Source: an uncultured Candidatus Saccharibacteria bacterium (GTDB lineage Bacteria; Patescibacteriota; UBA1384; JAGGWG01; CAZAJM01). From it: a DNA stretch of 64,000 bases. The notes beneath the pieces are model-generated. The model made no database searches and had not been told where the DNA came from. It was given only the letters and a program-made list of their open reading frames with translations. A program made the translations under genes and the position numbers. The stretch spans positions 3,349 through 67,348 of the forward strand of contig CAZAJM010000004.1 in NCBI GenBank assembly GCA_964485625.1, given 5' to 3'. Shown here one piece after another: positions 38,956 through 58,580 of this stretch; positions within the stretch are counted from its first letter, which is position 1; each line of letters starts with the position of its first letter.

Positions 38956-39001
<46 letters not shown>

Positions 39002-40298: not shown

Positions 40299-40363
40299 AA
40301 ATATATCCAGATTATTACACAATCTCAATTGATTTTCAAGCCTAGTTTTAATATCATTACTTA

Positions 40364-41614: not shown

Positions 41615-41676
41615 TGATTGGAGTTAATCTGTGGTATAATAGCTTTAAAATATATAAGTATTAAAGGAGAGGCGAT

Positions 41677-42042
41677 ATGCTTTCTGCTTTTGTTGGTTGG
41701 TACTATCTAGATATCCCCAAAAGGCTTTTAGATTACTTTAAAGTCTGGCTATTTCACCTATATGATCTTTTTTCTGTAAAAATAATTCTTAAAACCTACC
41801 TTGCTCCCTGGAAGAGAGACTTGCTCTCTACTAGAAACCTGTCTCTTAACGAGCGGGTTAGGGTTTGGTGGATGAATGTAATTTCAAGGATGATCGGTGC
41901 TTTTATCAAGACTGCCACTTTAATTGGTTTTCTAATTAGCACCATTGGTTGGCTGGTGTTTTCACTAATCTATTTTTTTGGATGGTTACTTTTTCCATTA
42001 ATATTTATTCTTCTAATAATTGGCTACTCAAATATCCTATGA
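41677..42042 (+). CDS. Small membrane protein (3 TM), translationally coupled to the downstream Clp-like ATPase
   Basis: 121 aa. Its stop TGA overlaps the ATG at 42039 (ATGA). Confidence 0.45.
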   Translation: MLSAFVGWYYLDIPKRLLDYFKVWLFHLYDLFSVKIILKTYLAPWKRDLLSTRNLSLNERVRVWWMNVISRMIGAFIKTATLIGFLISTIGWLVFSLIYFFGWLLFPLIFILLIIGYSNIL

Positions 42043-44507
42043 ACCAGTTTGATATTAAAAAATCAGTTAACTACTCAGCTTACCGTCTTAGGAAGTTCTG
42101 CGGTTCTTGGTTTGGTAAGGTCCTAATAATATTATTTAATCTTATCGGTCTAGTTGGTTTGGGCCTGCTAATCTATCTAGTTTTTAACTACCAGCCCCTA
42201 GTTCTTGATTGGGCTCTAAGGGCAGGAGCAGCCTACTTGGCCTTTAAGATATTTCATATTTTTTATCTAGACTATCTATTGGGGCCAAAACTTAAAGTTG
42301 ATCAGGCTTTGAAATTTGTTAACAGTGGCAAAGAGTTCAACTTGGCCGATGGGCTAGATCCCTGTCTGTTAGGAGTCTTTGAGCAAGAAAAATATCTAGC
42401 TAAAGATATTGCTTTGGGTTTAATAGAGCTCGATGAACTCAACTTTGTCCTAAACCGAGCCGGAATTAGCCGTGATGAGATCAGGAGAAGAATCGAGGAG
42501 AACATTAACGGCGAACAGGTTGGTAGTAGAGAAGAGGTGGTTATTAAGGCCTTTCAAGTAGCCAAAGCTGAGGGGCATGGTGATGTTGGCCCCGGAGACT
42601 TGTTTATTGCTCTAACTATGATCGAACCGGCCTTAAAAAGATTGGTCGATGAACTGGGCTTGAGGTTAGAAGATCTACTTAATATTGTTTACTGGTATAA
42701 CCTAGTTAAGAGGAAGAATTTTAATTTTTTAGATACTAGTGATTTTATCTTCAATGGCGGGGTAGGCAAGGACTGGATCTTTGGCTATACCAGATACCTA
42801 AATCGGTACAGTCAGGATATTACTGACTTAATTAGACAGAATAGGAATAATCTAAAATACATTGGTCATCAGTCAGTTATTGACAAAATAGAGAAATCAT
42901 TACTTAGTAGTCAAGGCAAGAATATGGTTCTGGTCGGTTCGGAGGGTTCCGGTAAGCGTACTTCCGTCTATGGCTTAGCTAGAAGAATAGCTCTGGGCCA
43001 GGCCTATGGTGCTATTAATTTAAAGCGGGTTTTAGAGTTAGATCTGGAAGCTCTACTCTCAGGAGCGACTAGTAGAGGCGAGATTGTAGGAAGGTTGAAC
43101 CGAGTTTTTGGAGAGGCAGCCAGAGTTGGTAATCTAGTTCTTCTTATTGACAATTTTGATAATATATTGTCTACTAAAGCACTTGGGCAGGTTGATGCCA
43201 GCCAGATATTAATACCATACTTAAGCTCACCTGAATTTAATGTGATTGGTACCAGTCAACCGGGTCCATATCATCGGTATGTTGAGAATAACCCGGCTCT
43301 AGATCAACGAATTGAGAAAATTGAGATAGAGGAGCCTGGGGAGCAGGAGATGATTAGAATTTTAGAGGACTCTGTACCGTTGCTTGAAGCTAGAACGGGA
43401 TGTTTTTTCCGTTATCTTGCTATTAAAGAAGTTCTGTTTTTGGCCAATAAGTATGTCTTCAATCAACCTAACCCCCAAAAATCTTTAAAACTTCTAGATA
43501 AAGTGGCTAGTGAGAGTCGGGGTCAGATTGTGACTAGAGAGAGAGTAAGAGAGATTGCCTCTAGCGCCTACAAAGTGCCAGTTGGTGAAGCGGGTCAAAG
43601 GGAGAAAAGAAGACTTCTTAATTTAGAGGAGATACTTCATAGGAGAGTGATTAACCAAAATCAGGCAATTGAAGAGATAGCCCAGGCGATGAGAAGAGCC
43701 AGAGCCGAGATTGGCCAGAAAGGTAAAAAACCGATTGGTAGCTTCTTATTTATTGGACCTACTGGAGTTGGCAAGACAGAAACAGCTAAAGCTTTGGCAT
43801 CAAGTTACTTTAGTGGAGAAGAGAATATGGCTCGGTTTGATATGGGTGAGTACCAGAACAAACAAGATCTCTATCGACTAATTGGGGATAGTCAAGAGGG
43901 AGGCAGGCCCGGAGAACTTTCCCGAAAGTTAAATGAAAGCCCCCACAGCCTGCTCCTGTTTGATGAGGTAGAGAAAGCCCATCCGGATATTTTGAATCTG
44001 TTTTTACAAATTTTAGACGAGGGTGTAGCTACTACCAGCCAGGGTAAGAAATTAGTATTTTCCAACACTATAATTATTGCCACTTCAAATGCTGGTGCCG
44101 AGTATATTAGAAAGAAGATTGAAGAAGGAGTCAACCCAGCTGAGATAAGTGATGAGATCCAAGACTACTTGATGGATAAGGGTATCTTTAAACCAGAGTT
44201 TTTAAATAGGTTTAGTAGCGTGGTCTCTTTCTCCCCATTAACTAGAGCTCAGATTGAAAAGATAGCTAAGATAAAATTAGATAAGCTAAAAAGACAGATA
44301 AAATCAGAGAAAGATATTCAGATAAACTTCGGAGAGAACGTAGCTTCGGAGATAGCCAGCCGGGGTTATAACCCGGAGATGGGTGCCAGACCGATGGAGC
44401 GAACCATAGAGAGACTAATCGAGAACTTAATTGCTAAAAAAATACTTGCCAACGATCTAAAACGAGGCGAGAGTCTAACTATTAAAGTAGAGGATTTTGA
44501 GAATTAA
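42039..44507 (+). CDS. Membrane-anchored Clp/Hsp100-family AAA+ ATPase with degenerate first nucleotide-binding domain
   Basis: Start chosen at the ATGA-coupled ATG (the ORF track starts at 41949). It has two N-terminal TM helices. D1 Walker A is GSEGSGKRT (non-canonical). D2 is canonical ([41 protein letters not shown]), followed by a C-terminal ClpB_D2-small-like region. Confidence 0.65.
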   Translation: MNQFDIKKSVNYSAYRLRKFCGSWFGKVLIILFNLIGLVGLGLLIYLVFNYQPLVLDWALRAGAAYLAFKIFHIFYLDYLLGPKLKVDQALKFVNSGKEFNLADGLDPCLLGVFEQEKYLAKDIALGLIELDELNFVLNRAGISRDEIRRRIEENINGEQVGSREEVVIKAFQVAKAEGHGDVGPGDLFIALTMIEPALKRLVDELGLRLEDLLNIVYWYNLVKRKNFNFLDTSDFIFNGGVGKDWIFGYTRYLNRYSQDITDLIRQNRNNLKYIGHQSVIDKIEKSLLSSQGKNMVLVGSEGSGKRTSVYGLARRIALGQAYGAINLKRVLELDLEALLSGATSRGEIVGRLNRVFGEAARVGNLVLLIDNFDNILSTKALGQVDASQILIPYLSSPEFNVIGTSQPGPYHRYVENNPALDQRIEKIEIEEPGEQEMIRILEDSVPLLEARTGCFFRYLAIKEVLFLANKYVFNQPNPQKSLKLLDKVASESRGQIVTRERVREIASSAYKVPVGEAGQREKRRLLNLEEILHRRVINQNQAIEEIAQAMRRARAEIGQKGKKPIGSFLFIGPTGVGKTETAKALASSYFSGEENMARFDMGEYQNKQDLYRLIGDSQEGGRPGELSRKLNESPHSLLLFDEVEKAHPDILNLFLQILDEGVATTSQGKKLVFSNTIIIATSNAGAEYIRKKIEEGVNPAEISDEIQDYLMDKGIFKPEFLNRFSSVVSFSPLTRAQIEKIAKIKLDKLKRQIKSEKDIQINFGENVASEIASRGYNPEMGARPMERTIERLIENLIAKKILANDLKRGESLTIKVEDFEN

Positions 44508-44530
44508 AACTATTTAATAGATAAATTCTT

Positions 44531-44557
44531 GTTTTGAGCTAAAATCGGAAGTCGGAC
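44531..44557. terminator. 27-bp palindromic hairpin; a second copy of the same palindrome is at 8234-8260
   Basis: aaaatcggaagtcggacttccgatttt just after the stop of the Clp-like gene. The other copy is aaaatcggaagtccgacttccgatttt followed by gtgttttt. Confidence 0.55.
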
Positions 44558-44584
44558 TTCCGATTTTGTTGGCTTTGGTATGGC

Positions 44585-44613
44585 TTGACAAGATGTAAAG
44601 TATGCTTTACATT
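44585..44613 (+). promoter_or_regulatory. Putative promoter with an operator palindrome (TGTAAAG-N4-CTTTACA) for the HTH-Hsp20 gene
   Basis: TTGACA at 44585-44590, a 17-nt spacer containing the inverted repeat tgtaaagtatgctttaca (44594-44611), and TACATT as the -10. Confidence 0.5.
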
Positions 44614-44636
44614 ATATATAGCAACTAATTTAAATT

Positions 44637-45308
44637 ATGGCTGAAGATAAGTTTTCTAACAGATTAAAGGAGCTAAGAAGTGAGATGGAGCTAACCCAGA
44701 AAGAGCTGGCTAAATCTCTTGACATAAGTAGGCAATCGTTGTCTAACTTAGAGAAGGGACAGTTTTTTCCTTCTTTTGGTCTGATTATGGATCTAGAAGA
44801 CTTTTTTGAGATGCCAATTAGAGAGATATATAAATCTAATAAGAAGCCTCAATCCCGTAATTACGGGAAGAGGCAAGGAGGTAAAATGGATAAAAATCAC
44901 TCACCTTTTGACGAACTAAATCGAATGCGGGAAGAGTTTGACAAGATGTTTTCCGATTCTTTTGGCTCTGTTTCTACATCTTTTCCTAAGATAAATCTTT
45001 ATCAAGACGATTCCGATTTAGTAATTGAGGCTGAAGTTCCGGGAATGAGCAAAGATGATCTGGAGATCAATTTAACTTCTGGCTCGGTAAGTATTAGTGG
45101 CGAGCGTAAAGATTCTCAAGAAGTAAAGGAAGATAGCTATGTCAGAAAAGAGAGCTCTTTTGGCAAATTCCATCGCCAGGTGGATCTGCCAGTTGAGGTT
45201 GATGATTCCAAGGCCAAGGCAACTATTAAGGATGGCAGAGTGAAGATTGTTGCTCCGGTCAAAAATTCTAAGTCTAGCGAGAAAGGTTTAGAAATACAGG
45301 AGGAGTAA
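44637..45308 (+). CDS. Fusion of XRE-family HTH DNA-binding domain and Hsp20/alpha-crystallin small heat-shock domain
   Basis: 223 aa. The N-terminus NRLKELRSEMELTQKELAKSLDISRQSLSNLEKGQ is an HTH_XRE. The C-terminus LVIEAEVPGMSKDDLEINL ... ISGER ... RKESSFGKFHRQVDLPVEVD ... DGRVKIVAPV is an alpha-crystallin domain. Confidence 0.75.
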   Translation: MAEDKFSNRLKELRSEMELTQKELAKSLDISRQSLSNLEKGQFFPSFGLIMDLEDFFEMPIREIYKSNKKPQSRNYGKRQGGKMDKNHSPFDELNRMREEFDKMFSDSFGSVSTSFPKINLYQDDSDLVIEAEVPGMSKDDLEINLTSGSVSISGERKDSQEVKEDSYVRKESSFGKFHRQVDLPVEVDDSKAKATIKDGRVKIVAPVKNSKSSEKGLEIQEE

Positions 45309-45368
45309 GATTATCCCTCCTATTTTGGGAGGAATTGAGTTTATACAAAAAAATTAATTAAAATATTT

Positions 45369-48041
45369 ATGAAATGTGATCGATGTCAGAAAAATTCAGC
45401 TCAAATTCAAGTTACTAGAATTAAAGACGGCAAAAGAGTAACCGAGAAGATCTGCCAAGAGTGTGCTCAGAAAGACTCTTCCATTAGCGGCTTTGGTTCT
45501 GCCAGTGGTTCGCCTTTTTCTAGTGGGGGAGACGATATTGGCTCTCTTTTTGATGCTTTCTTTGGTGGAGGCGGTCAATCACCTTTCTCTGCTGCCAGAC
45601 AACCCCGAAGTGAGTCGATAAATATTGCTGATAATTTTAGCTCCGAACTCCAATCGGTAGTTGAAACAGCTAGTGATGTAGCTAGTAAGAAAAATAATCA
45701 ACAAATAGATACTGAGCATCTATTGATTGCTCTAACCGGAGATGATTTAGCTAAGAAGATATTTAAGCGTTTGAAGATTAAACCGACCGAGCTGAGAAAG
45801 AAAGTTAACCAGCAGATTAAAAAAGATAGTTACAGTCAGGAGCCTGATTTTTCTCCTAGAGCCAAGCGAGTCTTTAATATTGCCTACCAAGAGAGTTATA
45901 AGCTAGGTCATAGTTATGTCGGCCCGGAACACTTACTAATGGCTTTGGCCAAAGAAGGTGAAGGCTTAGCTGCTCAAATATTGAAAGAAGTCGGTGCTGA
46001 CTATAAATCAATTAAGAACGCTGTTGTTAAAGTTGTCGGTAAGGGAGAAGAGTATGGCAAAGGTGATCGAACGATGACGCCAACTTTGGATGAGTTTAGT
46101 CGAGATCTGACCGGCCAAGCTAGAGAGGGCAAGCTTGATCCTGTAATTGGTAGAGTAGATGAGATGAACGCTACTATGGAGATACTATCTAGAAGGACCA
46201 AGAACAATCCAGTTCTAATTGGTGAGGCCGGAGTAGGCAAGACCGCAATTGTAGAGGGCTTGGCTACCAAAATTATTAAAGATGAGGTACCGGCTCCTTT
46301 GAAGAACAAAAGACTTTTGGAGCTTGACTTAACGGGAGTAGTGGCCGGAACGAAGTATAGGGGGCAGTTTGAAGAGAGATTAAAGAAAATACTAAAAGAG
46401 ATTGAAGAGAATCAAGAAGATTTGATTGTTTTTGTCGATGAGATGCATTTAGTAGTTGGTGCCGGAGGATCTGGTGAGAGCGGAGGAATGGATGCCAGTA
46501 ATATTTTAAAACCTGCTTTGGCTAGAGGTGATCTACATATGATAGGTGCTACTACTTTAGATGAGTATCAGAAATATATTGAAAAAGATGCTGCTTTAGA
46601 GAGAAGATTTCAGCCGGTAATGGTCGATGAGCCAAATGTGGAGCAGACCATCAGTATTTTAAGAGGCCTAAAGGATGCCTACGAGGCTCACCATCGGGTT
46701 AAGTTAACTGACCAATCTTTGGTAGCTGCTGCTGAGCTATCAGACCAATATATCTCCGATAGATATTTGCCTGATAAAGCGATTGATCTAGTAGATCAAG
46801 CGGCTGCTAAAGTAAGATTGGCCCAAGTTTCAGATCCGGAGAAGTTAAAAGAAGTTAACAAAAAAATTAAGGAGGCGACCAAGGAGAAAGATCAGGCAGT
46901 CGCTGCCCAGAACTTTAAGAAGGCCAATAAATTAAAAAGTGAGATAGAGGATCTTAAGAAAGAGAAAGAGAAAATTGATGTTGGTGTCAAAAAAGACCAA
47001 GCAACCGGACAACCAAAAGTGACTACTCAAGAAGTAGCGGAGATAGTTTCAAGAAGAACCGGGGTGCCTGTCTCTAAATTAGCTGAAGAAGAGAAAGCTA
47101 AGCTACTTGATTTAGAAAAAAGAATCCACAAGCGAGTGATTGGTCAGGAAGAGGCAGTTGAGTCAATTAGCGAGGCAGTAAGAAGAGGCAGAGCGGGTCT
47201 TAAAAGCAAGAATAGACCGGTCGGTTCGTTTATCTTTCTAGGTCCCACCGGTGTAGGTAAGACGGAGCTAGCCAAGACCTTGGCCTATCAACTCTTTGGA
47301 GACGAGGAGGCTCTAATCAGAGTAGATATGAGTGAGTATATGGAGAAACACGCTGTCTCTAGATTAATTGGTGCTCCTCCTGGATATGTTGGTTATGAAG
47401 AGGCCGGCCAACTGACAGAAGCTGTTCGTAGAAAACCATATAGCGTAATACTTCTAGATGAAATTGAGAAAGCTCATCCGGATGTCTTTAATATTTTACT
47501 CCAAGTTTTGGAGGATGGCCGATTAACAGACGGCAAGGGTAGGGTGGTGGATTTTAAAAACACCATTATTATTGCTACTTCCAATATTGGCTCTAGTTTA
47601 ATTAGAGAGAGAAGCGAAAAAGAGGCAAAAGCTAAAACAAAGAAGAAAAAAGAAGAGATCTATGAAGAGACCAAAGAGGATTTAATGGAGCGGCTCAAAG
47701 AAGAGCTTAGGCCTGAGTTTCTAAACAGACTCGATGAGGTGATTGTCTTCCATAGTCTAGGTAAGGAGCAGATTAGAGAGATTGTAGAGCTAGAACTTGA
47801 TAAGACACGAAGATTATTGCGTGGCCAGGGCATTGAGTTGGAAGTAAGTAAGAAAGCCAAAGACAAAATTGCTAGTGAAGGCTATGACCCGTCTTTTGGT
47901 GCCAGACCACTAAGAAGGGTGGTTCAGACCAAGATAGAGAACCCAATCTCTAGTCTAATTTTAAAAGAAGAGGTTGATAAAGGCGATACAATCAAAGTTG
48001 ATCTAGATAAAAAGAAAGACTTTAGTTTTAAGAGTAAATAA
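45369..48041 (+). CDS. clpC: ClpC/ClpE-type Hsp100 ATPase with N-terminal C4 zinc finger
   Basis: 890 aa. N-terminal CDRC ... CQEC zinc ribbon and Gly/Ser linker, two Clp_N repeats, D1 [15 protein letters not shown], a short middle domain, D2 [15 protein letters not shown], and a ClpB_D2-small region. Confidence 0.9.
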
Positions 48042-48077
48042 AAAGACCTAGAAGTAATTTGGTAAGTAGTTAAACAA

Positions 48078-48551
48078 CTAGGCTTTGGTTGGATTTGATT
48101 TACTACCAAGCTTCTTTATGGTATAGATCGGGACGATTATTAAGATATATGCTGCTAGATGGCCGGTTATTAAATATATCCAACTCTCTAGTGCTAAATT
48201 TGAACCGAGATTTATCCAAGTAGAGAGATATATTGCCAATACAATTCCGTTATCAATGATAAACAGAATGTCTTGCTGGTTGGTGGTGACTACATTGTCG
48301 CATAAAATAAAAAGTACCATACCAATAGCAAAACCGGTAACAGTCAATGTTGTTAGCATATTTTCTTCTGTAATTGCCTCAGGATTTCCCAGCAAAACTA
48401 TCGCCAGCAAGGCTATTCCAAGTGTAGCCAGTAATATTATGGAATTACTCTTGTATCTTATAGCAAAGTATTGGATCCCAATAATTATTCCAAAAACAAG
48501 TAGGGCAAGAATAGTGGTGATGATACTCATTTTGTTCCTCCCATGGGTCAA
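48078..48551 (-). CDS. Hypothetical membrane protein (4-5 TM)
   Basis: 157 aa, hydrophobic throughout. Preferred over the antisense ORF 48256-48567. Confidence 0.45.
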   Translation of the reverse strand: MTHGRNKMSIITTILALLVFGIIIGIQYFAIRYKSNSIILLATLGIALLAIVLLGNPEAITEENMLTTLTVTGFAIGMVLFILCDNVVTTNQQDILFIIDNGIVLAIYLSTWINLGSNLALESWIYLITGHLAAYILIIVPIYTIKKLGSKSNPTKA

Positions 48552-48635
48552 GGTGCTGATACTGTAATCTAGATTAGGTTAGCATAGCTTGCTTGTCAAC
48601 AAAAAAGGGCTCGAATAATAGTCAAAAAAATGTTT

Positions 48636-49178
48636 TCAACTAAACGAGCCGTTTAGGTAGAAGGCGGCAACTACATTAGCGTAGATTAATGTCGTTATCA
48701 GCAAAGAAGGTATCAAGATGCTGCTTTTCTTTGTAATGTTGTTTTTTTCAATTGAGATATCTGCACCTTGTCCATTGTAGCATTCTTCAATCATTAGATC
48801 ATTCATCTCAGATCCCAAAATAAAGCTATAACAGAAATAGAATATGAGAATTGCTAGGCTTGTGATAATAGTAGCTATAATGATGTTTGTTAACTGAACA
48901 AAAACCATAAAGAGAAGTGAAATTACAACTCCTGCAGTAATTGATATCAATAGGAAGTTTTTTGTAATCTGTGAAGTGAATTCAGCGGCGCTTGATCTAA
49001 TTAATAGCAGTGCTATTAAAAGAATAACTAAGCTTGAGATTATCATGTAAGTACTACTGTTATCATCAATAGCAAAATTTTGAAAAAACATTAGTGCGAT
49101 AATAAGCACAATAATAATGTTAAAGTTTATTATGCTATAATCAACTTCCGTTCTTGTTTGGTCTACTTTCTTTTCCAT
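48636..49178 (-). CDS. Hypothetical membrane protein
   Basis: 180 aa with multiple TM helices. Confidence 0.45.
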   Translation of the reverse strand: MEKKVDQTRTEVDYSIINFNIIIVLIIALMFFQNFAIDDNSSTYMIISSLVILLIALLLIRSSAAEFTSQITKNFLLISITAGVVISLLFMVFVQLTNIIIATIITSLAILIFYFCYSFILGSEMNDLMIEECYNGQGADISIEKNNITKKSSILIPSLLITTLIYANVVAAFYLNGSFS

Positions 49179-49263
49179 TTCTTCTCCTTCCTGGGGCTGG
49201 TTGTGAGGCTACTAGACTGATATAATAAAGATTAGTTAAATTAATTAATTTTGTCAATAAGCT

Positions 49264-49713
49264 ATGCTAGTAACTACTCATTTAATAGCCGGAGCGACAG
49301 TTGGCTCTCTGGTTGCTAACTTACCACTCTCAATTTTGTTGGCAATAATCTCTCACTATAGTCTGGATTTAATACCTCATCTCGATCAGGGAGTATTTAA
49401 AGATAATAGAAAAAAGTTCTATTTTTGGGCAGCGGTAGATTTTATCGTTGGCGGCTTAGCTCTATATCTAATATTTTCTCAAATTGGTTTTCAACTAAAT
49501 GTATTAATAGTTGCTTTAGCGGCTATAGTGCCTGATTTGATGGATAGCAGTCCAGTAATCTTTAACTACATTCATAGAGTAGGAATTTTTAACAAGTTAT
49601 ATCGATTCCATGAGGCAATCCAGAAGCCAGGCAAGAAGTATATCTATAGTTTGGGCATAGTTAGCCAGATTTTAATTGTTGGAATTTCTCTCTATCTATT
49701 GCTAAAATATTAA
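49264..49713 (+). CDS. Hypothetical membrane protein
   Basis: 149 aa, 4 TM. Confidence 0.45.
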   Translation: MLVTTHLIAGATVGSLVANLPLSILLAIISHYSLDLIPHLDQGVFKDNRKKFYFWAAVDFIVGGLALYLIFSQIGFQLNVLIVALAAIVPDLMDSSPVIFNYIHRVGIFNKLYRFHEAIQKPGKKYIYSLGIVSQILIVGISLYLLLKY

Positions 49714-49723
49714 GCAGGTATTT

Positions 49724-49951
49724 ATGGTATCAAAGATTATAATTTTTGTTTTATCTATAGTTGTAGGCCTTTACTTTTTGGTTAAGAGCGAGTATATTGT
49801 GCGAGTAATCGGTCACAACGCTTGGGTTGATAGTTATTTAGGAAGAGGAGGAAGTTACTTGATGTGGAAAGTGATCGGGATAGCAGTAATGATTCTAGGA
49901 TTCCTCTACTTATTAGGAGACCTTGATCCGTATATTAGTTGGGGGCCGTAG
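49724..49951 (+). CDS. Small hypothetical membrane protein
   Basis: 75 aa, 2 TM. Its 3' end overlaps a tRNA-like fragment. Confidence 0.3.
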   Translation: MVSKIIIFVLSIVVGLYFLVKSEYIVRVIGHNAWVDSYLGRGGSYLMWKVIGIAVMILGFLYLLGDLDPYISWGP

Positions 49952-50030
49952 CTTGATTTGGGGTTGTAGCTTCCCGCCAAGGTGGGAGTAGAGCGGTCCG
50001 GTGTCCACCGGACAGGTAATTAAAAAATAT
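49942..50030 (+). pseudogene. Two tandem tRNA-5'-half-like fragments (pseudo-tRNA) upstream of tRNA-Ala
   Basis: gggggccgtagcttgatttg and ggggttgtagcttcccgcc...gtagagcggtccggtgtccaccggac repeat the acceptor/D-arm start GGGGYYGTAGCT of the adjacent tRNA-Ala. The second has a D-stem and an anticodon-like hairpin but no T-arm. Confidence 0.45.
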
Positions 50031-50046
50031 AGTAAGAAAATTTTTT

Positions 50047-50119
50047 GGGGTCGTAGCTCAATTGGTAGAGCGCCTCGCTTGCACCGAGGAGGTAGCGGGT
50101 TCGAATCCCGCCGACTCCA
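50047..50119 (+). tRNA. tRNA-Ala (anticodon TGC), CCA not encoded
   Basis: GGGGTCGTAGCTCAATTGGTAGAGCGCCTCGCTTGCACCGAGGAGGTAGCGGGTTCGAATCCCGCCGACTCCA. G3:U70 is present. Anticodon loop CTTGCAC. Confidence 0.9.
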
Positions 50120-50253
50120 CTTTTTTATTAAAAAAAGAGGCGGGAATGAAGAACCCGCTAGCCTGTCAGATAAAACTAAAATATATTTTAAAATATCTCG
50201 GCTTAGATGAGCATTAACTAAGACTAAGCCAATGGAAGAAGGGCCTTGGGCCC

Positions 50254-50273
50254 ATCGAATCCCGCCGACTCCA
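50254..50273 (+). repeat. Exact 20-bp direct repeat of the tRNA-Ala 3' end (T-loop half to discriminator), att-site-like
   Basis: tcgaatcccgccgactccac at 50101-50120 and again at 50254-50273. Confidence 0.7.
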
Positions 50274-50443
50274 CCAAAAAAAAGCACTCTGGTGTTACAT
50301 TAGAGGTACAGAGTGTTCGAATTCCTTCAACCTCATAATCGATAAATCTAGTTATTAAACTGGATTTCTCTCTTGACTTTAATTGATTATTAATTGTATT
50401 ATTAAATTGTTCTGTACCGCCAAATCTGAAAGGAGCAGGGAGC

Positions 50444-51049
50444 ATGGCAATAACCTATGATATAAATAGAAGAAAAGCTGAACAAATTCTTAAACTTTTA
50501 GAGAGAATTACAGGTAATAATTGGGAACTTAATTTTGAGGCTTTTGTTTGTACTGATAGTGAGCAAGAGTTGACCTTTGTTCGTGAGCCACTTTCTGAAG
50601 ATGGAGTTGTTGATTTAGAAGAGTGGAAAGAAATTTTTGGTGAACAGATAGAGCATATTCTAGAAGCTGTTAGGCTTGCTCATAGCAGACCGCCTTATTA
50701 CAAGAATGATTGGCAGGTTGCCGCTGGTCCTGACCTTAAAAAGATTGTTCTATTGTTGTCTTGCTTGGGATTAGGAGTGAATATATATGATGGTAGTTTA
50801 GCTAGTGGTGATACAGTAATCATTGATCCCGAGGATAATAATTGGGGTGGACAGCTATGTAGGCGATGTCAAATTTTTGACAAGTTAGGCGGAAGACAAA
50901 ACTTACTTTCTGCCTCAGGACTGCTTTTGCACAGAAGGTATTCAGGTCTCTACAAATTGGCTGCTCAGTTATATATTCTTCTACCTCCCATTATCAAACT
51001 TTCTGAAGGTTCTTTAGTTGATGATGACTCAAATGTAGAGTCAGCTTGA
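50444..51049 (+). CDS. Hypothetical protein
   Basis: 201 aa, no recognisable motif. Confidence 0.4.
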   Translation: MAITYDINRRKAEQILKLLERITGNNWELNFEAFVCTDSEQELTFVREPLSEDGVVDLEEWKEIFGEQIEHILEAVRLAHSRPPYYKNDWQVAAGPDLKKIVLLLSCLGLGVNIYDGSLASGDTVIIDPEDNNWGGQLCRRCQIFDKLGGRQNLLSASGLLLHRRYSGLYKLAAQLYILLPPIIKLSEGSLVDDDSNVESA

Positions 51050-51075
51050 TTATTGTTAACTATTTAACCTTCTTT

Positions 51076-51636
51076 TTATTTTACATTTTTAATAAATTTT
51101 TTAATTTGGTTTTCAAGTTCTTTAACTGTTCCGTTATTATCAACCACTAAATCTGCTTTATCTCTCAATTTCTCAATTTTTAATTCAGTTTCTCTTAAGT
51201 GATCTTTTTTGAACTCCTCAAAAGTTTTATTCTTATCATCCCCTTTCTCTCTGCGGCCGGTGATCCTTTTGTATCTAGTTCTAAGGTCGGCCTTGACATA
51301 GATTAAGTAGAAATTACTATTTTTCTTCAAATTTGTAATATCTTCATTTCTTCTAACTCCGTCTACTACGATCATTTTATTGCTAATATTTTCAATATCT
51401 TTCTCAATTACTCTAGCCAGAATATTTTCACCGTAGATTTCTCTTAAGCTAGTAGAGAGTTTCTGTAAGTTGTCCCTGTTTACTTCTAAGTAAAGCCTCT
51501 CAACTATTTCTTTTAGTACATCAGAGTATTTAATTACTTTCGCCCCATGGTTATTCTCTAGATAGTCTGCAACCTTGCCTTTACCTGAAGCAATCTGTCC
51601 GGCTAAGCCGATGATGATATTTTTCTCTTTATTCAT
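51076..51636 (-). CDS. P-loop nucleoside/nucleotide kinase (dNMP-kinase / dephospho-CoA-kinase-like)
   Basis: 186 aa with IIGLAGQIASGKGKV Walker A and a DGVRR motif as in NMP kinases. The exact substrate is not inferable. Confidence 0.5.
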   Translation of the reverse strand: MNKEKNIIIGLAGQIASGKGKVADYLENNHGAKVIKYSDVLKEIVERLYLEVNRDNLQKLSTSLREIYGENILARVIEKDIENISNKMIVVDGVRRNEDITNLKKNSNFYLIYVKADLRTRYKRITGRREKGDDKNKTFEEFKKDHLRETELKIEKLRDKADLVVDNNGTVKELENQIKKFIKNVK

Positions 51637-51761
51637 CTTTTTGATAGTTTAATTTTGTATTTTGGAACATATCTTTTATATTTAATTTCACTAGCATCTA
51701 GCATTTTTCTGGCGGCTTGCCATTCCTTTTGATTGTGATATTTATCGCTAGCATAAACTAG

Positions 51762-52118
51762 TTATTTTATTCCCGATTGAATAATAGTTTTTACACATTC
51801 ATTACATGGAAATAGGGTACAGTAGAGTATACAGTTTTTGGGTTTTTTATTAGTATTATAGATTGCGTTCTCCTCTGCATGGACTACATAGGGATATTTG
51901 GTCTGGCAGAAGCTTCCTTCTCTGCACCAAGGAAACTTATCATCCGAGCAACCTCTAGGAAAACCATTGTAACCCAGCCCAACTACAATGTTATTTTGAT
52001 CGACAATTACTGCACCTGCTTGAGTTGAGGGGTCTTTAGACCTCTGTGCAATTAAAAAGGCCATCTGCATAAAAGTTTCGTGCCAATCTAAGTAGTTTTT
52101 TCTTTTCTTACTCTTCAT
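51762..52118 (-). CDS. dCMP/CMP deaminase (zinc-dependent cytidine-deaminase fold)
   Basis: 118 aa with HAEENAI and PCNECV zinc-binding motifs. Confidence 0.75.
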
Positions 52119-52234
52119 AACATATCTATGATATCAAAGAACATTTGACATCGCAATTAAGCATTAGGTAAAATGTAGGTAGAGAATATTAATTAATATA
52201 TTAACTATTTGGGGGAGAAAGGATTTAAAAGATT

Positions 52235-52978
52235 ATGACTTGGCAAGATGTACAAGATGCTATCGTTGCTTCTTGGGAAGAGGTGATTACTAGGATTATC
52301 AATTTTATTCCTAGCCTTCTAGCCGCTATCGTTATCTTGGTTGTCGGTTGGATCGTCGGCGTACTACTAGATCGTCTATTTGATAGGATTCTGCGATCAG
52401 TCGGCTTGCAGGACCTATTTGAAAGTATCAAGGTAGAAGATTTAGTTAGTAAAACAGGAATTGAGCTGGATACCACCGCTTTGCTAGGCAAGTTGGTTAA
52501 ATGGATTGTTCTGATTATCGCCTTCCTAGCTTCAGCTGAAGTGCTTGGTTTAGAGAGCGTGGCAGGATTTTTTGATGCTATTTTAGCCTACGTGCCTAAT
52601 GTGATTGTTTCTGTAGCCGTTCTAATTATTGCCGCTGTGCTGGCACAGTTTTTGGCAGAAGTTGTTCGAGGCAGTCTTAAGGCAGGAAATCTAGGTTATG
52701 CCGATTTTCTATCTGAAGTTGTTCGATGGGCTATTTGGGTTTTTGCAATTCTAATTGCTCTAAATCAGTTAGGCGTAGCTAGAGAACTAATTCAGACAAT
52801 ATTCACAGGTTTTGTTGCTATGGTTGCCATTGCCGGTGGACTAGCCTTTGGTTTAGGTGGGCAGGATCATGCCCAAGAGCTAATAGAGAACGTTAAAGAT
52901 GGTATTTCTAGCGGAGAAGAGATGATGGAAGAAGAGCCCGGAATGATGGAAGAGGATGAAGAGGAGATTGAGCTTTAA
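52235..52978 (+). CDS. Membrane protein with repeated TM-helix modules (MscS-N-terminal-like) and acidic C-terminal tail
   Basis: 247 aa with repeated amphipathic/TM helices and a C-terminal EEMMEEEPGMMEEDEEEIEL tail. Confidence 0.45.
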   Translation: MTWQDVQDAIVASWEEVITRIINFIPSLLAAIVILVVGWIVGVLLDRLFDRILRSVGLQDLFESIKVEDLVSKTGIELDTTALLGKLVKWIVLIIAFLASAEVLGLESVAGFFDAILAYVPNVIVSVAVLIIAAVLAQFLAEVVRGSLKAGNLGYADFLSEVVRWAIWVFAILIALNQLGVARELIQTIFTGFVAMVAIAGGLAFGLGGQDHAQELIENVKDGISSGEEMMEEEPGMMEEDEEEIEL

Positions 52979-55245
52979 ATATTGAGCTTTTAATAAGGAG
53001 GGGAGCCTTATTGGGCCATATTTAACTTATGGTTACTTGTAGTCCTTGACAAAGTGTTTTTAGTTGTTTAGACTTAAACCATGATAATTAGAGAACAATT
53101 TAGCAAGAGGGGGATATCGAAGTAGGCATAGATTCAATTACGGTTTCTTTTCTAGAATGCCTAAAAATTTAAGGCATTTTTTCATTGACTTGAGAATTGG
53201 CTAGTAGCTAGAAGCCCTCACTTAGAGCCTAGATTGAGCTCTATCTGAAGGTTTCTAACTGTTAGCCAGATTGGCTAGCGCAAAAATGAACTTTAACAAC
53301 TCGGTTGATAAGTAAAATAAATAGATAAAAATAGAAAATATTTCTATTTGCAATTTCTCGATTATGAAGTAGTTACTTTTGTAAATATATATGCGTATGG
53401 TGGATGTCTTGGTAGAAAGAGCCTATGAAGGACGTGGCAGGCTGCGATAAGCCTCGGTGAGTCGCCAAACAGACTTTGACCCGAGGATTTCCGAATGAGT
53501 TAACTCAGCTTGGTGAAAGCCAAGTTAATCCCGCTTTTTGTGGGATAGGGCACCCGTTGAATTGAAACATCTTAGTAAACGGAGGAAGAGAAAATAATAA
53601 TGATTTCCCTAGTAGTGGCGAGCGAACGGGAAACAGTCTAAACTTCTCGATTTATCGAGAAGGGTTGTGGGGTTTGCAATGTTTAGATCTATCTGTTAGT
53701 TGAAGGTCCCTGGAAAGGGCCGCCAAAGAGGGTAATAGCCCCGTAAACGAAAATAGAAAGATCTAATAGCATTTTCCCCAAGTACCATCGGACACGTGAA
53801 ACCCGGTGGGAATCTAGCTGGGACAACAGCTAAGACTAAATACTCTTTATGCCGATAGTGAACTAGTACCGTGAGGAAAAGATGAAAAGAACCCCTGTTA
53901 GGGGAGTGAAATAGAACCTGAAGCCATATGCTTACAATGAGGTGAAGTCGCGCTTTTGCGTGGTGACACCGTGCTTTTTGCAGAACGAGCCAACGAGTTA
54001 GCTGTATACGGCAAGCTTAATCCCGCTAAGCGGGAGAAGGCGTAGCGAAAGCGAGTTTTAACTAGCGTTTAGTCGTATGCACTAGACCCGAAACCAGGCG
54101 ATCTATCTATGGCCAGGGTGAACCCCGCCGAAAGGCGTGGGGGAGGCCCGAACACGTGAGAGCTGCAAATCTCTGTGATGAGCTGTGGATAGCGGTAAAA
54201 TGCCAATCGAGCCTGGCAATAGCTGGTTCTCTTCGAAATATATTTAGGTATAGCCTTTGTTAATTGCTAAGAAGAGGTAAGGCTCTGGATCGGTCTAGGT
54301 TCCTTTGTGAACCTAAACCGAATCAAACCTCAAATTCTTCTTAGTTTAGACAAAGAGTCAGAACGCGGGGGCTAAGCTTCGCGTTCGAAAGGGAAACAAC
54401 CCAGATCGTCATCTAAGGTCCCCAAATAAGATCTAAGTGGTAAAGGAAGTAGTTCGCCGAAGACAGGCAGGAGGTTAGCCTAGAGGTCGCAATCCTTTAA
54501 AGAGTGTGTAACAACTCACTGCCCAATCCGGTATGGATTGGCGGGCTGCGCCTAAAATGTAACGGGGCTAAGATCTTTACCGAAGATGCGACGTCCGGTT
54601 TTTCGGACGGGTAGAAGAGCGTTCTCATCGCACTGAAGCTCAGACTGTGAGGTCGGGTGGAGCGTTGAGAAGTGAGAATGTTGGCATGAGTAACGAATTA
54701 ATTCGATGAGAAATCGGATCACCCAATATCTAAGGTTTCCTCCGCAATGCTAATCAGCGGAGGGTTAGTCGGTCCTAAGCCCAACCCCGCCTGTGGCGGG
54801 GTCAAGCGATGGGCATGTGGTTAATATTCCACAACTATCACTTGTTCGCTACTATTGCTATAGATGACTTCCGCCATTTGGCGGAACTAGAAAAATTTAT
54901 AGCAAGAGAACAAGCGGTATCCGTACCGCAAACCGACGCAGGTAGATGGGTCGAGAAGACCAAGGTGATCGGAAGAACCCTCTCTAAGGAACTCGGCAAA
55001 AAAGCGTTCGTAACTTAGGGATAAGGACTGCCACGTAAAATTTTTCTTCGGAAAAACTAACGTGGCCGCAGCGAATGTGCCCGAGCGACTGTTTACCAAA
55101 AACACAGGTCTCTGCGAACTCGCAAGAGTATGTATAGAGACTGACCCCTGCCCAATGCCAGTGTGTTACGGGGATATCGTCACTTCGGTGACGGTTGAAC
55201 CTAAGCCCTGGTGAATGGCGGCGATAACTATAATCGTCCTAAGGT

Positions 55246-55843
55246 GGAATAGCTGCCTTAGTAAAATCTAGCTATATGCTGGAACATCTGAGTATAATTT
55301 GGTACTATGGTAGTATGTATCCTTAGATATGTACTATGTTAAGTAAAAAATCAAATTTGCAGGCAACCAGCAGGAAAGACCAATCTTTTGCCTGGTGGCT
55401 AGTAGGATTTACTGACGGAGAAGGATGCTTCTCTGTTAGTAAGTTTAGAAATCCTACAACAAGATCTGGATGGCAAGTATTTCCAGAGTTTGTAGTTACC
55501 CAAGGTGAGAGCAGCAAGCAATCACTTGATGAAATTAAGGATTTCTTCAAGTGTGGAGGTGTATATATTAACCGTAGAAATGATAATCACAAAGAAGATC
55601 TATATCGGTACTGTGTAAGATCGGTTGATGATCTAATCAATGTGATTATTCCATTTTTTGAAAAGCACCCGCTTAAGACTGCTAAACAAAAATCTTTTAT
55701 GGATTTCAAGAAAAAAGTCGAAGCTATAAAAGAAAAACGAAGTAAAAGATAGGAATCCTCAGAGACTATACGCTAGAGTCTGATATTCTATCAGATAAGA
55801 TATAGTCCGAACTTTAGTGCGAGCTAAAGACTAACAAATAATG
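55246..55843 (+). mobile_element. Group I intron at the E. coli L1931-equivalent site, encoding a LAGLIDADG endonuclease
   Basis: 5' exon ends CCTAAGGT (U at -1) and the intron ends in G before AGCGAAATTCC. An S-like element agatatagtccgaac lies ~35 nt before the 3' splice site. Confidence 0.75.
55336..55752 (+). CDS. LAGLIDADG homing endonuclease (single-motif) in 23S intron 1
   Basis: 138 aa with LVGFTDGEGCFSVS. Confidence 0.8.
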   Translation: MLSKKSNLQATSRKDQSFAWWLVGFTDGEGCFSVSKFRNPTTRSGWQVFPEFVVTQGESSKQSLDEIKDFFKCGGVYINRRNDNHKEDLYRYCVRSVDDLINVIIPFFEKHPLKTAKQKSFMDFKKKVEAIKEKRSKR

Positions 55844-55863
55844 AGCGAAATTCCTTGTCAGGT

Positions 55864-56121
55864 AAAATGTCAGAATTTGCCTGAGCAGTGTCGTGAGATG
55901 CTGTTAGTAATCCGGCTAATAACGAGGGAATCCCACAATTGTGGGACAACCCCGTGGGAAGTCTAGACCACTAGTTAGTGGATGGACCCCGTAACGACTG
56001 AGTCGAAAGACGAGATCTAAGACTTAAAGCTTAGATAATACGCCGGCACTCCAATTTATATTTTGGAGTTGAAGAGATAGTCTAATTCTAGTTGAATATA
56101 AAAACTAGTTCTAATTAAATG
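55864..56121 (+). mobile_element. ORF-less group I intron at the L1951-equivalent site
   Basis: Exon GTCAGGT ends in T, the intron ends ...aattaaatG, and the exon resumes AAGTTCTGACC. Internal core ccgtgggaagtc...ggatggaccccgtaacgactgagtcgaaaga and S-like gagatagtctaattc. Confidence 0.7.
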
Positions 56122-56677
56122 AAGTTCTGACCTGCACGAAAGGGGTAACGGTTTGGGCTCTGTCTCGGAGAGGGATCCGGTGAAATTGCAATGTGGGTGA
56201 AAATGCCCACTACTTACGGCAGGACGGAAAGACCCCGTGAAGCTTTACTACAGGCTGGTATTGGATTGAGGGGGCTTTTGTCGAGAATAGGTGGGAGACT
56301 TTGAAGTTAGGACGCCAGTCCTAATGGAGTCGCCAGTGGAATACCACCCTTAAGACCTTTTAATTCTAACCTTGGTTCGTTTCATAGATTGACTGAGGAA
56401 CAGTGCTTGCTGGGTAGTTTATCTGGGGCGGATGCCTCCTAAATAGTAACGGAGGCGTGCTAAGGTTCTCTAGTCCAGTATGGAAATCTGGATGATAGTG
56501 CAAAAGCATAAGAGAGCCTCGACTGCAAGACTTACAAGTCGAGCAGGTGCGAAAGCAGGCTTTAGTGATCCGACGTTTCCCTTTGTACAGGGGCGAAGCT
56601 CAACGGATAAAAGCTACTCCGGGGATAACAGGTTAATCGGGCCCAAGAGCTCATATCGACGGCCCGGTTTGACACCT

Positions 56678-57000
56678 CAACATAGTCGACGATCCACGCA
56701 AGTGGATTATGGGGTGTAACGTTAAGCAATTAGCGTTTAGTAATTCGATCAAAACGGTGGAACCTTCTTTATGTAATCTATATTGTATTGTATAATATAG
56801 GTGTAAATAGAAAGGCAATACCGTGGGAGATCCAGAAAATGGATAACCCGTAGAGACTTAATTGTAATTAAATACAATTAGATTCAGTGTATTTTTGCTG
56901 GATAATACGTCGAACTCTCCGATTTTATCGGAGATGAAGGTATAGTCCAAACCTATTGGAAACATTAGGTAGTAACATTAGAAAATGTTATGTAAATTTG
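56678..57000 (+). mobile_element. ORF-less group I intron at the L2500-equivalent site (peptidyl-transferase loop)
   Basis: Exon ...GACACCT ends in T, the intron ends ...aaatttG, and the exon resumes CGATGTCGGCTC. It carries ccgtgggagatcc...ggataacccgtagagactt and S-like gaaggtatagtccaaacc. Confidence 0.7.
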
Positions 57001-57032
57001 CGATGTCGGCTCATCTCATCCTGGGGCTGAAG

Positions 57033-57730
57033 CAAACATAACTGCTTTCTCTGGTGGAAACACTAGAGTAATTAAACAAGCTCAAAACGGTGAAGGCCAC
57101 TAGTTATATTAATAATGGTTAATACCGTGAGAAAAAAAGTTTTTGAAGTCAATAAAGCTTATTTAGCAGGTTTATTTGATGGTGATGGATCAATCATGGC
57201 AATGATTGAGAAACATCAACAGATGAAGTTTGGATTTAGATTAAGAGTAATTTTTAAAATATCACAAAAAGAGAGAAAATCTTTAATGAAGCTAAAAAAG
57301 AAATTTCTCTTCGGTAAGATCGTATCTAATCGCAAAGCATATGATTGGATAATTAGAGATCAATGTAATATTAAGAAAATTCTTAATTACCTATCACCAT
57401 ATGTGATAGTTAAATCTAAACAAGTTAAGTTAGCATTGAAGATTATTAATGCTAATAAAGACACAAAAGATAACTTTCTAAACACAGCCAAATTGACTGA
57501 TTCATTGGCAAAATTAAACGTTAGGTCTAAAGGCCGACGCAAAAATTATTCAACAATGGTCAAAGAATCTTTTTCTCGTAACGACTGATTGTTACATTTA
57601 TTTGTAACATGAGATATGTTCTAAATTAAGGACATATCACACGGCTTGCACCTAAATTGAATTCAGCAATGAATATCAATATGGTGAAGGTATAGTCTGA
57701 TACTTGTAGCAATACAAGCGAACGTGAATG
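57033..57730 (+). mobile_element. Group I intron at the ~L2532-equivalent site, encoding a LAGLIDADG endonuclease
   Basis: Exon ...GGGGCTGAAG, then the intron, resuming AGGTCCCAAGGGT after ...gtgaatG. S-like gaaggtatagtctgatac ~40 nt before the 3' end. Confidence 0.65.
57115..57588 (+). CDS. LAGLIDADG homing endonuclease (single-motif) in 23S intron 4
   Basis: 157 aa with LAGLFDGDGSIMA. Confidence 0.8.
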   Translation: MVNTVRKKVFEVNKAYLAGLFDGDGSIMAMIEKHQQMKFGFRLRVIFKISQKERKSLMKLKKKFLFGKIVSNRKAYDWIIRDQCNIKKILNYLSPYVIVKSKQVKLALKIINANKDTKDNFLNTAKLTDSLAKLNVRSKGRRKNYSTMVKESFSRND

Positions 57731-57781
57731 AGGTCCCAAGGGTCTAGCTGTCCGCTAGTTAAAGAGGTACGCGAGCTGGGT

Positions 57782-58059
57782 AAGTGAATATGAGCCCAGT
57801 AAAAATCGACTCATAACGGAGAAGTTCATTAGTATGTGATATAATGAATACTGTATGAATAATTCCGTGGGAAGTCCGGTCCGCCAGTTGGCGGATGGAC
57901 CCCGTAAAGACTGACTCGAAAGAGAAGGATTGAGGAAACATAAACTCAATCAATACGTCGATCTTAGTTGTTAAGAATTGATTATGGCAAGTATTAGCCT
58001 AAAATCAATAACTAAGAAAGGTATAGTCTGTACTTTTAGTAATAAAAGATAAATATACG
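57782..58059 (+). mobile_element. ORF-less group I intron near the L2584/2585-equivalent site
   Basis: Exon ...GCGAGCTGGGT ends in T, the intron ends ...aaatatacG, and the exon resumes TCAGACCGTCGTAAGACAGGTCGGTCC. Core ccgtgggaagtccggtccgccagttggcggatggaccccgtaaagactgactcgaaaga and S-like aaaggtatagtctgtac. Confidence 0.65.
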
Positions 58060-58461
58060 TCAGACCGTCGTAAGACAGGTCGGTCCTAATCCGCCGTAAG
58101 CGTTTTAGCTTGAGGGAGGTTGCCTCTAGTACGAGAGGACCGAGGTGAACAAGCCTCTAGTGTACCAGTTGTTAACTCCATTTTCGGATGGAATTACGCA
58201 TCGCTGGGTAGCTATGCTTGGTCGAGATAAGCGCTGAATGCATATAAGCGCGAAGCTCATCCCAAGATTAGGCAAAATGCTTCCTTGAAGATTACGAGGT
58301 TGATAGGCTGCAGGTGTAAGTGGAGCAATCCATTCAGCCGAGCAGTACTAATAGCTGCATTTCTCCATTCTCCCGCTTAATTGGCGGGAAATCGAGTCTG
58401 CTTCATAATCGGAAAATTGCAAATAGATTTATTTATACTATTTTACACTTCGAAGGCATTG

Positions 58462-58580
58462 TTCTGGTGCCCATAGCGAGATGGCCACACCTGTTCTCAT
58501 TCCGAACACAGAAGTTAAGCATCTCAGCGCTGATGATACTTGCTCGGCAACGAGCTGGGACAGTAAGTCGGCGCCAGAAC
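58462..58580 (+). rRNA. rrf: 5S rRNA
   Basis: ttctggtgcccatagcgagatggccacacctgttctcattccgaacacagaagttaagc...gggacagtaagtcggcgccagaac. The terminal helix ttctggtg/caccagaa (reverse complement of the 3' end) and loop C CCGAAC are present. It lies ~95 nt after the 23S 3' end. Confidence 0.85.

Follow-up and report, generated by a model that had tools for sequence, protein, structure and literature searches.

A bacterial 23S rRNA gene with five predicted group I introns, one of them at a splice site lacking the U•G wobble pair

Five insertions in one 23S rRNA gene

A 23S rRNA gene (53377..58370, 3' end approximate) is located on the forward strand of the window, as we call the whole stretch of 64,000 nucleotides from contig CAZAJM010000004.1 that was analysed. 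In all likelihood the region is one functional gene, probably of a bacterium of the Candidate Phyla Radiation (CPR)/Patescibacteria, that is interrupted by five group I introns, named I1 to I5 from the 5' end. Each of them would fold after transcription into a group I ribozyme core; an external guanosine would cut the 5' splice site, the terminal G of the intron would enter the P7 pocket and the exons would be ligated with the help of P10. Splicing would restore the uninterrupted H69-H71 region and the peptidyl-transferase ring. Five group I introns at these places had been proposed from the bare sequence in the original prediction, and both exon mapping and intron anatomy bore this out.

The Rfam model LSU_rRNA_bacteria matched with 1871 bits from 53377 onwards; the end obtained at the gathering threshold, 56723, is misleading for the 23S gene. 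A blastn comparison of E. coli rrlH with the region revealed six colinear blocks reaching 58352, equivalent to E. coli position 2884. From these blocks and a reading of the junctions six exons on the forward strand were derived: E1 (53377-55245, to E. coli U1931), E2 (55844-55863, 20 nt, 1932-1951), E3 (56122-56677, 1952-2500), E4 (57001-57033, 33 nt, 2501-2533), E5 (57731-57781, 51 nt, 2534-2584) and E6 (58060 to ~58370, 2585 onward). Excision of the five introns yields a 23S rRNA of 2835 nt (counted with 58365 as the last base of exon 6) that is colinear with the E. coli molecule over positions 1872-2664 and has zero gaps at the five junctions. Alignment of the concatenated exons to E. coli, failure of which would have refuted the original prediction, was gap-free across every proposed junction. 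The three internal exons E2, E4 and E5 have introns on both sides. While splicing proceeds they would have to be held by the guide sequences of the neighbouring introns, and the order of intron removal may matter.

All five introns lie on the forward strand: I1 (55246-55843, 598 nt) after U1931 at site L1931, I2 (55864-56121, 258 nt) after U1951 at L1951, I3 (56678-57000, 323 nt) after U2500 at L2500, I4 (57034-57730, 697 nt) after position 2533 at L2533 and I5 (57782-58059, 278 nt) after U2584 at L2584. I2, I3 and I5 contain no open reading frame (ORF). Site L2533 is in what we take to be the loop of helix 91. The sites L1931, L1951, L2500 and about L2584 and the coordinates had been assigned correctly, but the site placed at about L2532 is L2533, C57033 being exonic. 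The last base of the 5' exon is U at I1, I2, I3 and I5 and C at I4, and a terminal G (omega-G) closes all five introns; U and G had been expected for at least four. Each guide sequence is complementary to its own upstream exon: CUAAGGU/GCCUUAG (I1), UCAGGU/GCCUGA (I2), CACCU/GGGUG (I3), GAAGC/GCUUU (I4) and CUGGGU/GCCCAG (I5). The pair at the cleavage site is a U•G wobble at I1, I2, I3 and I5 and C-G at I4.

Automatic boundary refinement mis-set some junctions, I1 for example at 1933 and not 1931, and the junctions in the window were corrected by hand according to the U|...G rule. At the other sites of the sample the final exon base was U and the final intron base G in the great majority, and most of the exceptions seem to have been introduced by the automatic setting of boundaries. 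A crude finder of guide sequences reported a 'U-A' at some other sites; these were treated as register errors and left unused, only the last exon base (U) being counted.

Ribozyme core and covariation

By their anatomy all five insertions are group I introns, with a P3/P7 pseudoknot core. The order of elements was the same in every intron: P3, an A-rich J3/4, P4-P5-P4', P6, J6/7, P7, P3', P8, J8/7 with the ATAGTC strand of P7, P9 and the terminal G. The structure of I5 was projected, with P3 entered as a pseudoknot, onto an alignment (A2) of 37 ORF-less family members, among them I2, I3, I5 and the L2533 cognate L075_2533; the family alignment had a length of 597 columns. In P3, P4, P5, P6, P7, P8 and P9, 94.2 % of the cells could pair, as compared to 34-45 % with the partners slid by 1-3 columns, and both sides changed in 18 of the 32 pairs. 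The covariation score was 0.337 versus 0.135 in shuffles, and none of 500 shuffles reached the observed score. Strong covariation was present in P3, P5, P8 and P9, while P7 and most of P4 and P6 were invariant. This alignment covers I2, I3 and I5 directly and I4 via its cognate L075_2533; for I1 the support comes from changes in P3 and P7 among L1931 cognates. In eight of these, inspected by eye, P3 covaries, with CUAGC/GCUAG in the window and CUGGC/GCCAG, UUGGC/GCCAA, AUCAC/GUGAU or UCGGC/GCUGA elsewhere, and P7 presents a compensatory change between GACUA/UAGUC and GGCCA/UGGUC. The minimum-free-energy fold of I5 recovered P1, P3, P4, P5, P6, P7.1, P7.2 and P8; it paired the P7 pseudoknot strand and P9 differently from our assignment.

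Two hairpins, P7.1 and P7.2, are located between P7 and P3' in I2, I3, I4 and I5; they are visible in A2 and absent from I1. The first hairpin differs between I2 and I5 in a pair-preserving manner (GUC-GAAA-GAC versus CUC-GAAA-GAG). Because of these hairpins I2-I5 were placed in the IA class; they are one IA-type group I family, IA by architecture only. Its members share a block, CCGTGGGA..CCCGTAR.GACT, that matched I2, I3 and I5 and none of 100 shuffles. The ORF of I4 separates the block into two parts, CCGTGAGA ending at ~57132 and CTCGTAACGACT at 57575-57586, and I1 lacks the block; a block common to four introns and not located in intron 1 had indeed been noticed in the sequence before. 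I1 is a group I intron of a different type and has in common with I2-I5 no more than the generic P7/S motif, which many group I introns possess. The proposal that all five share a conserved core therefore stands for I2-I5 as one family, but not for I1. An S element had likewise been proposed for all five and was present in each of them, as GGTATAGTC(C/T) in I3, I4 and I5, GATATAGTCC in I1 and GAGATAGTCT in I2. The wording given for it needs a slight change: the string common to all five is ATAGTC, and it ends 31-53 nt before the 3' terminus of the intron.

Structure of the individual introns

All positions in this section refer to the forward strand. In I1, P1 is formed by CUAAGGU (55239-55245) and the internal guide sequence (IGS) GCCUUAG (55255-55261), P3 by 55268-55272 with 55772-55776 and P4 by 55278-55282 with 55367-55371. 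P6' and the R element occupy 55757-55771, P8 55779-55795, the S element 55797-55808 and P9 55812-55829, and the omega-G is 55843. The R (UCAGAGACUAUAC) and S (AAGAUAUAGUCC) elements are of the classic form, and P2, P7.1 and P7.2 are missing.

I2 has the IGS GCCUGA at 55879-55884, P3 at 55912-55916 with 56042-56046, P4 at 55922-55928 with 55950-55955 and P6 through P7 at 55956-55999, followed by P7.1 (56002-56011), P7.2 (56015-56036), P8 (56049-56068), the S element (56072-56083) and P9 (56088-56108). The AT-rich and diverged I3 has an extra hairpin in the P1 loop. Its IGS GGGGUG is located at 56711-56716, P3 at 56744-56748 with 56910-56914, P4 at 56754-56758 with 56820-56824, P6 through P7 at 56825-56858, P7.1 at 56859-56880, P7.2 at ~56883-56904 (by eye), P8 at 56915-56934, the S element at 56937-56948 and P9 at 56952-56969. 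In I5, P1 is formed by CUGGGU and GCCCAG (57794-57799), P3 by 57805-57810 with 57957-57962 and P4 by 57816-57821 with 57863-57868; P6 through P7 extend over 57869-57912, P7.1 over 57915-57924, P7.2 over 57928-57951, P8 over 57963-58016, the S element over 58018-58029 and P9 over 58033-58048.

In I4 the exon sequence GAAGC pairs with the IGS UGCUUU (57043-57048) to form P1, and P2 follows directly at 57049-57068. P3 consists of 57077-57082 with 57643-57648, P4 of 57087-57092 with 57123-57128 and P6 of 57129-57131 with 57575-57577; J6/7 plus P7 are at 57578-57586, P7.1 at 57589-57609, P7.2 at 57613-57638, P8 at 57649-57686, the S element at 57687-57698, P9 at 57703-57718 and the omega-G at 57730. 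The same architecture was found in the cognates L075 and L060 and in 64 metagenome contigs. The middle pair of P6 in I4 is A-U (GAG/CUC) in place of the otherwise invariant GGG/CCC, a compensated change. The changed P6 sequence also codes for the endonuclease (..T V R K.. and ..S R N D stop).

Homing endonuclease genes

Two of the introns, I1 and I4, carry LAGLIDADG genes by Pfam LAGLIDADG_1 (PF00961; curated cut-off 23.1 bits) and three are free of ORFs, just as had been read from the sequence. The gene in I1 (55336..55752, forward strand) encodes a single-domain protein of 138 amino acids. This gene is placed in the P6 loop, and its 5' portion extends over P4' and the P6 5' strand. The protein scored 88.5 bits (5.9e-25), matched halves of I-OnuI-family enzymes in the PDB (best 1e-32) and has 51-56 % amino acid identity to the ORFs of L1931 introns elsewhere. 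The gene in I4 (57115..57588, forward strand) encodes an I-CreI-like single-domain protein of 157 amino acids. From its start in P5'/P4' it takes up the whole P6 loop, and the first base of its UGA stop codon (57586-57588) coincides with the final one of the P7 5' strand. Its product scored 48.4 bits (1.9e-12), matched I-CreI and I-MsoI in the PDB with 1e-16 to 1e-19 and shares 44 % amino acid identity with the ORF of the L2533 intron in L060. Overlaps of ORFs with the ribozyme core have been seen earlier (PMC1995217; PMC3984707).

In the translations the motifs of both proteins are intact and include the acidic residue, LVGFTDGEG in I1 and LAGLFDGDG in I4. Judged from these sequences, the two proteins would be active endonucleases that presumably act as homodimers, cut intron-less alleles and drive homing. 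The presumed targets are the intron-less junctions ..CCUAAGGU|AGCGAAA.. at L1931 for the I1 enzyme and ..GCUGAAGC|AGGUCCC.. at L2533 for the I4 enzyme. A tblastn search with 48 cognate endonucleases revealed zero relics of such genes in I2, I3 and I5. Other genomes contain versions of these three introns with such genes, and those of the window are the endonuclease-free form.

The 5' splice site at L2533

The C-G pair at the cleavage site of I4 was followed in metagenomes by a scan in which the last exon base was left free (CCTGGGGCTGRAGNAAACA). At least 120 loci were obtained, of which 68 were non-redundant true introns. An alignment (A3) of 67 sequences comprised two genome copies, from the window and from L075, and 65 metagenome copies. 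The cleavage-site pair was A-U in 62 of the 67 sequences, C-G in two and another pair in three; U•G was observed in none. In the window, exon base C57033 pairs with a G of the guide sequence (span 57029-57048). P2, next to the splice site, covaries at all eight pairs in A3, a terminal G was present in 61 of 61 cognates with an identifiable 3' end, and in many copies inspected by eye the guide sequence is continuous with the P10 pairing (ACCU with AGGU). In intronless alleles position 2533 was A, U or C in roughly equal numbers and AGGU always came next; the assignment of the splice site is therefore sound. The sequences ..GAGA|AGGT.. and ..AAGC|AGGT.. were common among these alleles, and alleles with U at 2533 exist but are not carriers of the L2533 intron. 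A 5' splice site of I4 after U2528 or G2532 was also considered and rejected: the terminal base of the intron would then be unconserved, and the ligated exon of the alternative sites, ..GAGG|AGGT.., occurred in no intronless allele.

Rare exceptions to the U•G wobble pair have been catalogued. In the Tetrahymena ribozyme the U-1•G22 pair is described as conserved and required, and its exchange to C-G increased the undocking rate ~80-fold (PMC1891724). We found no published report of a Watson-Crick splice-site pair at L2533 in the literature, whose coverage was incomplete. It appears an evenly balanced question whether the L2533 introns constitute a natural lineage in which the near-universal U•G is replaced by a covarying Watson-Crick pair, mostly A-U and here C-G. 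The lineage keeps the terminal G, P10, the IA core and an A-rich J4/5. If these introns splice efficiently, the cleavage site would be recognised without the contact to the wobble receptor, or a protein would supply this function. The L2533 lineage is thus a ready-made natural test of the contribution of the wobble, which the textbook mechanism treats as required.

Alternatively, I4 may be crippled or dependent on a protein, in that the LAGLIDADG protein as maturase, or another factor, is needed for an efficient first step. The pairing statistics of A3, with C-G in the window and never U•G, and the consequence of the same exchange in Tetrahymena point in this direction, as does the size of most cognates, 700-800 nt, which is consistent with a kept ORF. 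However, the pair covaries from A-U to C-G and hence is under selection, and the remainder of the core, the terminal G and P10 are conserved. Moreover, ORF-less cognates of 371-500 nt exist (L075, L171), so the I4 protein is not essential in cis. We consider such a dependence to be rather unlikely.

Distribution and history of the introns

The family motif CCGTGGGARNTC..CCCGTARNGACT spans P4'-P6-J6/7-P7 and matches I2, I3 and I5 in the window. A scan of GTDB with one genome per species, the loci of which were labelled with L-numbers (e.g. L075), presented the motif at 120 loci at least. The 112 motif loci examined were almost always inside the 23S rRNA gene, at L1951, L2500, L2449, L2656, L2533 or L2584, and the motif was mostly missing from co-resident introns at L1917, L1923, L1931, L2593 and L2604. 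Among the matches listed, the hosts were Patescibacteria, Actinomycetota, Thermoleophilia, Chloroflexota, Eremiobacterota, Gemmatimonadota, Omnitrophota and metagenome-assembled genomes of Gammaproteobacteria. One locus, L026, is recorded as 'uncultured archaeon' and has bacterial-type 23S exons, with an intron at L2584 and a further insertion near position 2512; this bin may be taxonomically mislabelled. Further copies of the IA-type family were located outside 23S genes, at loci L040, L052, L053, L061, L092 and L097, with Intron_gpI scores of 55-70 bits that exceed the gathering score; the copy in L040 adjoins the 3' end of a 16S gene and a match to group II D1-D4.

The four related introns lie within 2.2 kb, and I2 and I5 share a block of 59 nt with 84.7 % identity. 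This could indicate a recent burst, in which one intron was copied into new 23S sites in this lineage, for instance by reverse splicing, a proposed route between rDNA sites (PMC3984707), and the copies then lost their endonucleases. The relationships argue otherwise. The best matches of each intron were introns at the same site in other genomes: L115 and L075 (L1931) for I1, the ORF-containing L1951 introns of L009, L010 and L035 for I2, the L2533 introns of L060 and L075 for I4 and the L2584 introns of L093 and L006 for I5. Over 194 core columns, pairwise identity among I2, I3 and I5 is only 51-57 %, and they rank mutually from 5th to 33rd of 36 relatives. The block itself is the conserved P6-J6/7-P7-P7.1 core, and its similarity in I2 and I5 is no higher than to members in unrelated genomes, e.g. 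84.8 % for L002 versus I2. Since the nearest relatives occupy the same site in the genomes of other organisms, the block common to these introns is to be seen as the conserved core of the family and does not point to a recent burst in this genome.

The endonuclease genes point the same way, with zero ORF remnants in I2, I3 and I5 and with families and locations that differ between the cognates of different sites. L1951 cognates carry a LAGLIDADG_1 gene (ORF ~215-670 of ~706 nt) which maps onto the P9 region of I2, L2584 cognates a LAGLIDADG_2 gene (ORF 73-687 of 824 nt) which maps onto the P5 loop of I5, and L2533 cognates an I-CreI-like LAGLIDADG_1 gene in the P6 loop. Since both the endonuclease family and its place in the intron vary from site to site, the ribozyme family has spread separately from the endonuclease genes. 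A recent burst is thus very improbable and already largely refuted; the earlier notion of a family that spread and then lost its endonucleases holds in deep time only. The observations fit an old ribozyme family at many sites, possibly established via reverse splicing (PMC3984707), with homing genes gained and lost independently. The three ORF-less introns would have arrived at their present state by gene loss, as their cognates suggest. Site-specific guide sequences and independently acquired endonucleases in an IA-type family at many conserved 23S sites of Patescibacteria, Actinomycetota, Chloroflexota, Eremiobacterota and other phyla offer comparative material on the separate movement of ribozyme cores and homing genes.

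Evaluation of the intron assignment

Several observations weigh against a functional CPR 23S rRNA gene with five group I introns. None of the introns reached the gathering score of 50 bits of Rfam Intron_gpI (RF00028). At the gathering threshold zero group I matches were obtained over the window; in E-value mode the best score was 38.6 bits (I3), followed by 35.3 (I2), 32.8 (I1, 55634-55829) and 22 bits (I4, 3' half), and I5 had no match even at E<=10. The 5' splice site of I4 is without the U•G wobble. The nearest 23S matches were CPR metagenome-assembled genomes at only ~80 % identity, so that the call of the organism is indirect; the host of the gene is probably a CPR/Patescibacteria bacterium. 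Finally, the splicing of the five introns is deduced from genomic sequence. The Intron_gpI search, suggested as a check at the outset, thus gave sub-threshold matches only and did not refute the group I reading, which is supported by the comparative structure. The closest blastn relative of I3, L003_2500, scored 57.1 bits and hence above the gathering score. As the model either overlooks these five introns or scores them too low, genes of this kind will be annotated wrongly by automated procedures.

Another view is that the insertions are intervening sequences which host RNases remove without ligation, leaving a fragmented 23S rRNA. RNase III-processed fragmented 23S rRNA is known in bacteria and has been suggested for some CPR insertions, and RNase III-type intervening sequences of 23S are found in variable helices, at positions 23IS2 and 23IS4 (PMC11270868). 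The five insertions of the 23S gene interrupt domains IV and V where these are most conserved, at positions 1931-2584, and are not in variable helices. Their group I cores are complete and covary, their guide sequences match the respective sites, and P10 and a conserved terminal G are present; exons of 20 nt and 33 nt are unlikely to be held in a ribosome. RNase III-processed intervening sequences are characterised by location in a variable helix, a simple extended stem, absence of a ribozyme core and absence of ligation, and in their location and their group I cores these insertions do not agree with this description; we give this explanation very little credence. It is hardly credible at all that the intron-laden gene is a pseudogene or was assembled as a chimera from the reads of several organisms. 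rRNA regions of metagenomes are prone to mis-assembly, and Logan contigs with the neighbouring ABC-transporter gene end within ~0.6 kb upstream of that transporter gene, just short of the rRNA genes. However, the exons combine into a single coherent 23S in which every junction is exact, the multi-intron architecture, including the rare pair of L2533 plus L2500 in L075, occurs in >100 independent assemblies, and the endonuclease ORFs are intact.

Neighbouring rRNA genes

A 5S rRNA gene (58463..58579, forward strand; Rfam 5S_rRNA, 98.8 bits) is located downstream of the 23S gene and is the only rRNA gene that follows it. The 16S rRNA gene (35110-39294) is on the opposite strand and unlinked, with ~14 kb between both genes (39294 to 53377). 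Within the 23S gene, the counterpart of E. coli positions ~1400-1600 comprises only ~90 nt (54831-54921) and had no blastn match. This short stretch is consistent with a reduction of domain III and with the shortened rRNAs reported for CPR.

The 16S gene has three insertions, each with a LAGLIDADG ORF and all on the reverse strand. They are located after E. coli position ~794 (37529-38541; ORF 37554-38291, LAGLIDADG_2, 2e-37), after ~1058 (36382-37245; ORF 36496-37122, weak LAGLIDADG_3) and after ~1398 (~35242-36054; ORF 35309-35794, LAGLIDADG_1). The last insertion contains a match to group II D1-D4 at 35734-35816 with 33.3 bits, below the gathering score of 35.

Comparison with known systems

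Insertion sequences in CPR rRNA genes were reportedly first noted by Brown et al. in 2015. A survey of CPR found insertions in 82 % of the 23S genes and as many as 16 in one rRNA gene (Tsurumaki et al. 2024, PMC11270868). According to Rfam, 45 % of the 23S insertions were group I introns; the encoded proteins were mostly single-domain LAGLIDADG enzymes, the group I introns were concentrated towards the 3' part of 23S, near the peptidyl-transferase centre, and versions with and without ORF, highly similar outside the ORF, occurred together (PMC11270868). The window is alike in its clustered introns in the 3' half of 23S, its mixture of introns with and without ORF and its single-domain LAGLIDADG_1 proteins, and the sites 1931 and 1952 of that survey correspond to L1931 and L1951. 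There, too, 16S genes are interrupted, including by a LAGLIDADG-bearing group-II-like element near 1400, which the insertion after ~1398 in the window resembles. Nothing essential differs: the multi-intron 23S gene is another example of the described CPR trait and changes little. The text of that paper contains no description of the subgroup structure, of the relationships among sites or of the splice-site pairing at 2533, and a literature search by the site labels L2533, L2584 and L2500 had no match.

Introns at the sites of I1 and I2 are known from other bacteria, namely at L1951 in Coxiella burnetii and at L1931 in Thermotoga, Simkania and Synechococcus, with ~700 nt and LAGLIDADG ORFs of 157-167 amino acids (Haugen et al. 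2007, PMC1995217). Set beside the window by their description, they share the sites, and their size is like that of the cognates of I2 (702-717 nt, 150-154 amino acids). The L1931 type has no P2 and a complex P5, as in I1. The L1951 intron of C. burnetii carries an ORF, whereas that of the window is ORF-less and has only 258 nt. The IA introns of phage Twort and at the cyanobacterial site L2593 possess two extra hairpins between P7 and P3', as in I2-I5, a short P2 with GNRA loop as in I4 and most family members, and a GNRA-capped P9 as in I3 and I4 (PMC1995217). The protein of I4 matches I-CreI over the full length (residues 15-147, E ~1e-16), and both are of similar size with one LAGLIDADG motif. 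The target site of I-CreI is 2593. I-CreI and I-MsoI are homodimeric enzymes of chloroplast 23S introns, whereas the gene of I4 sits at another site, 2533.

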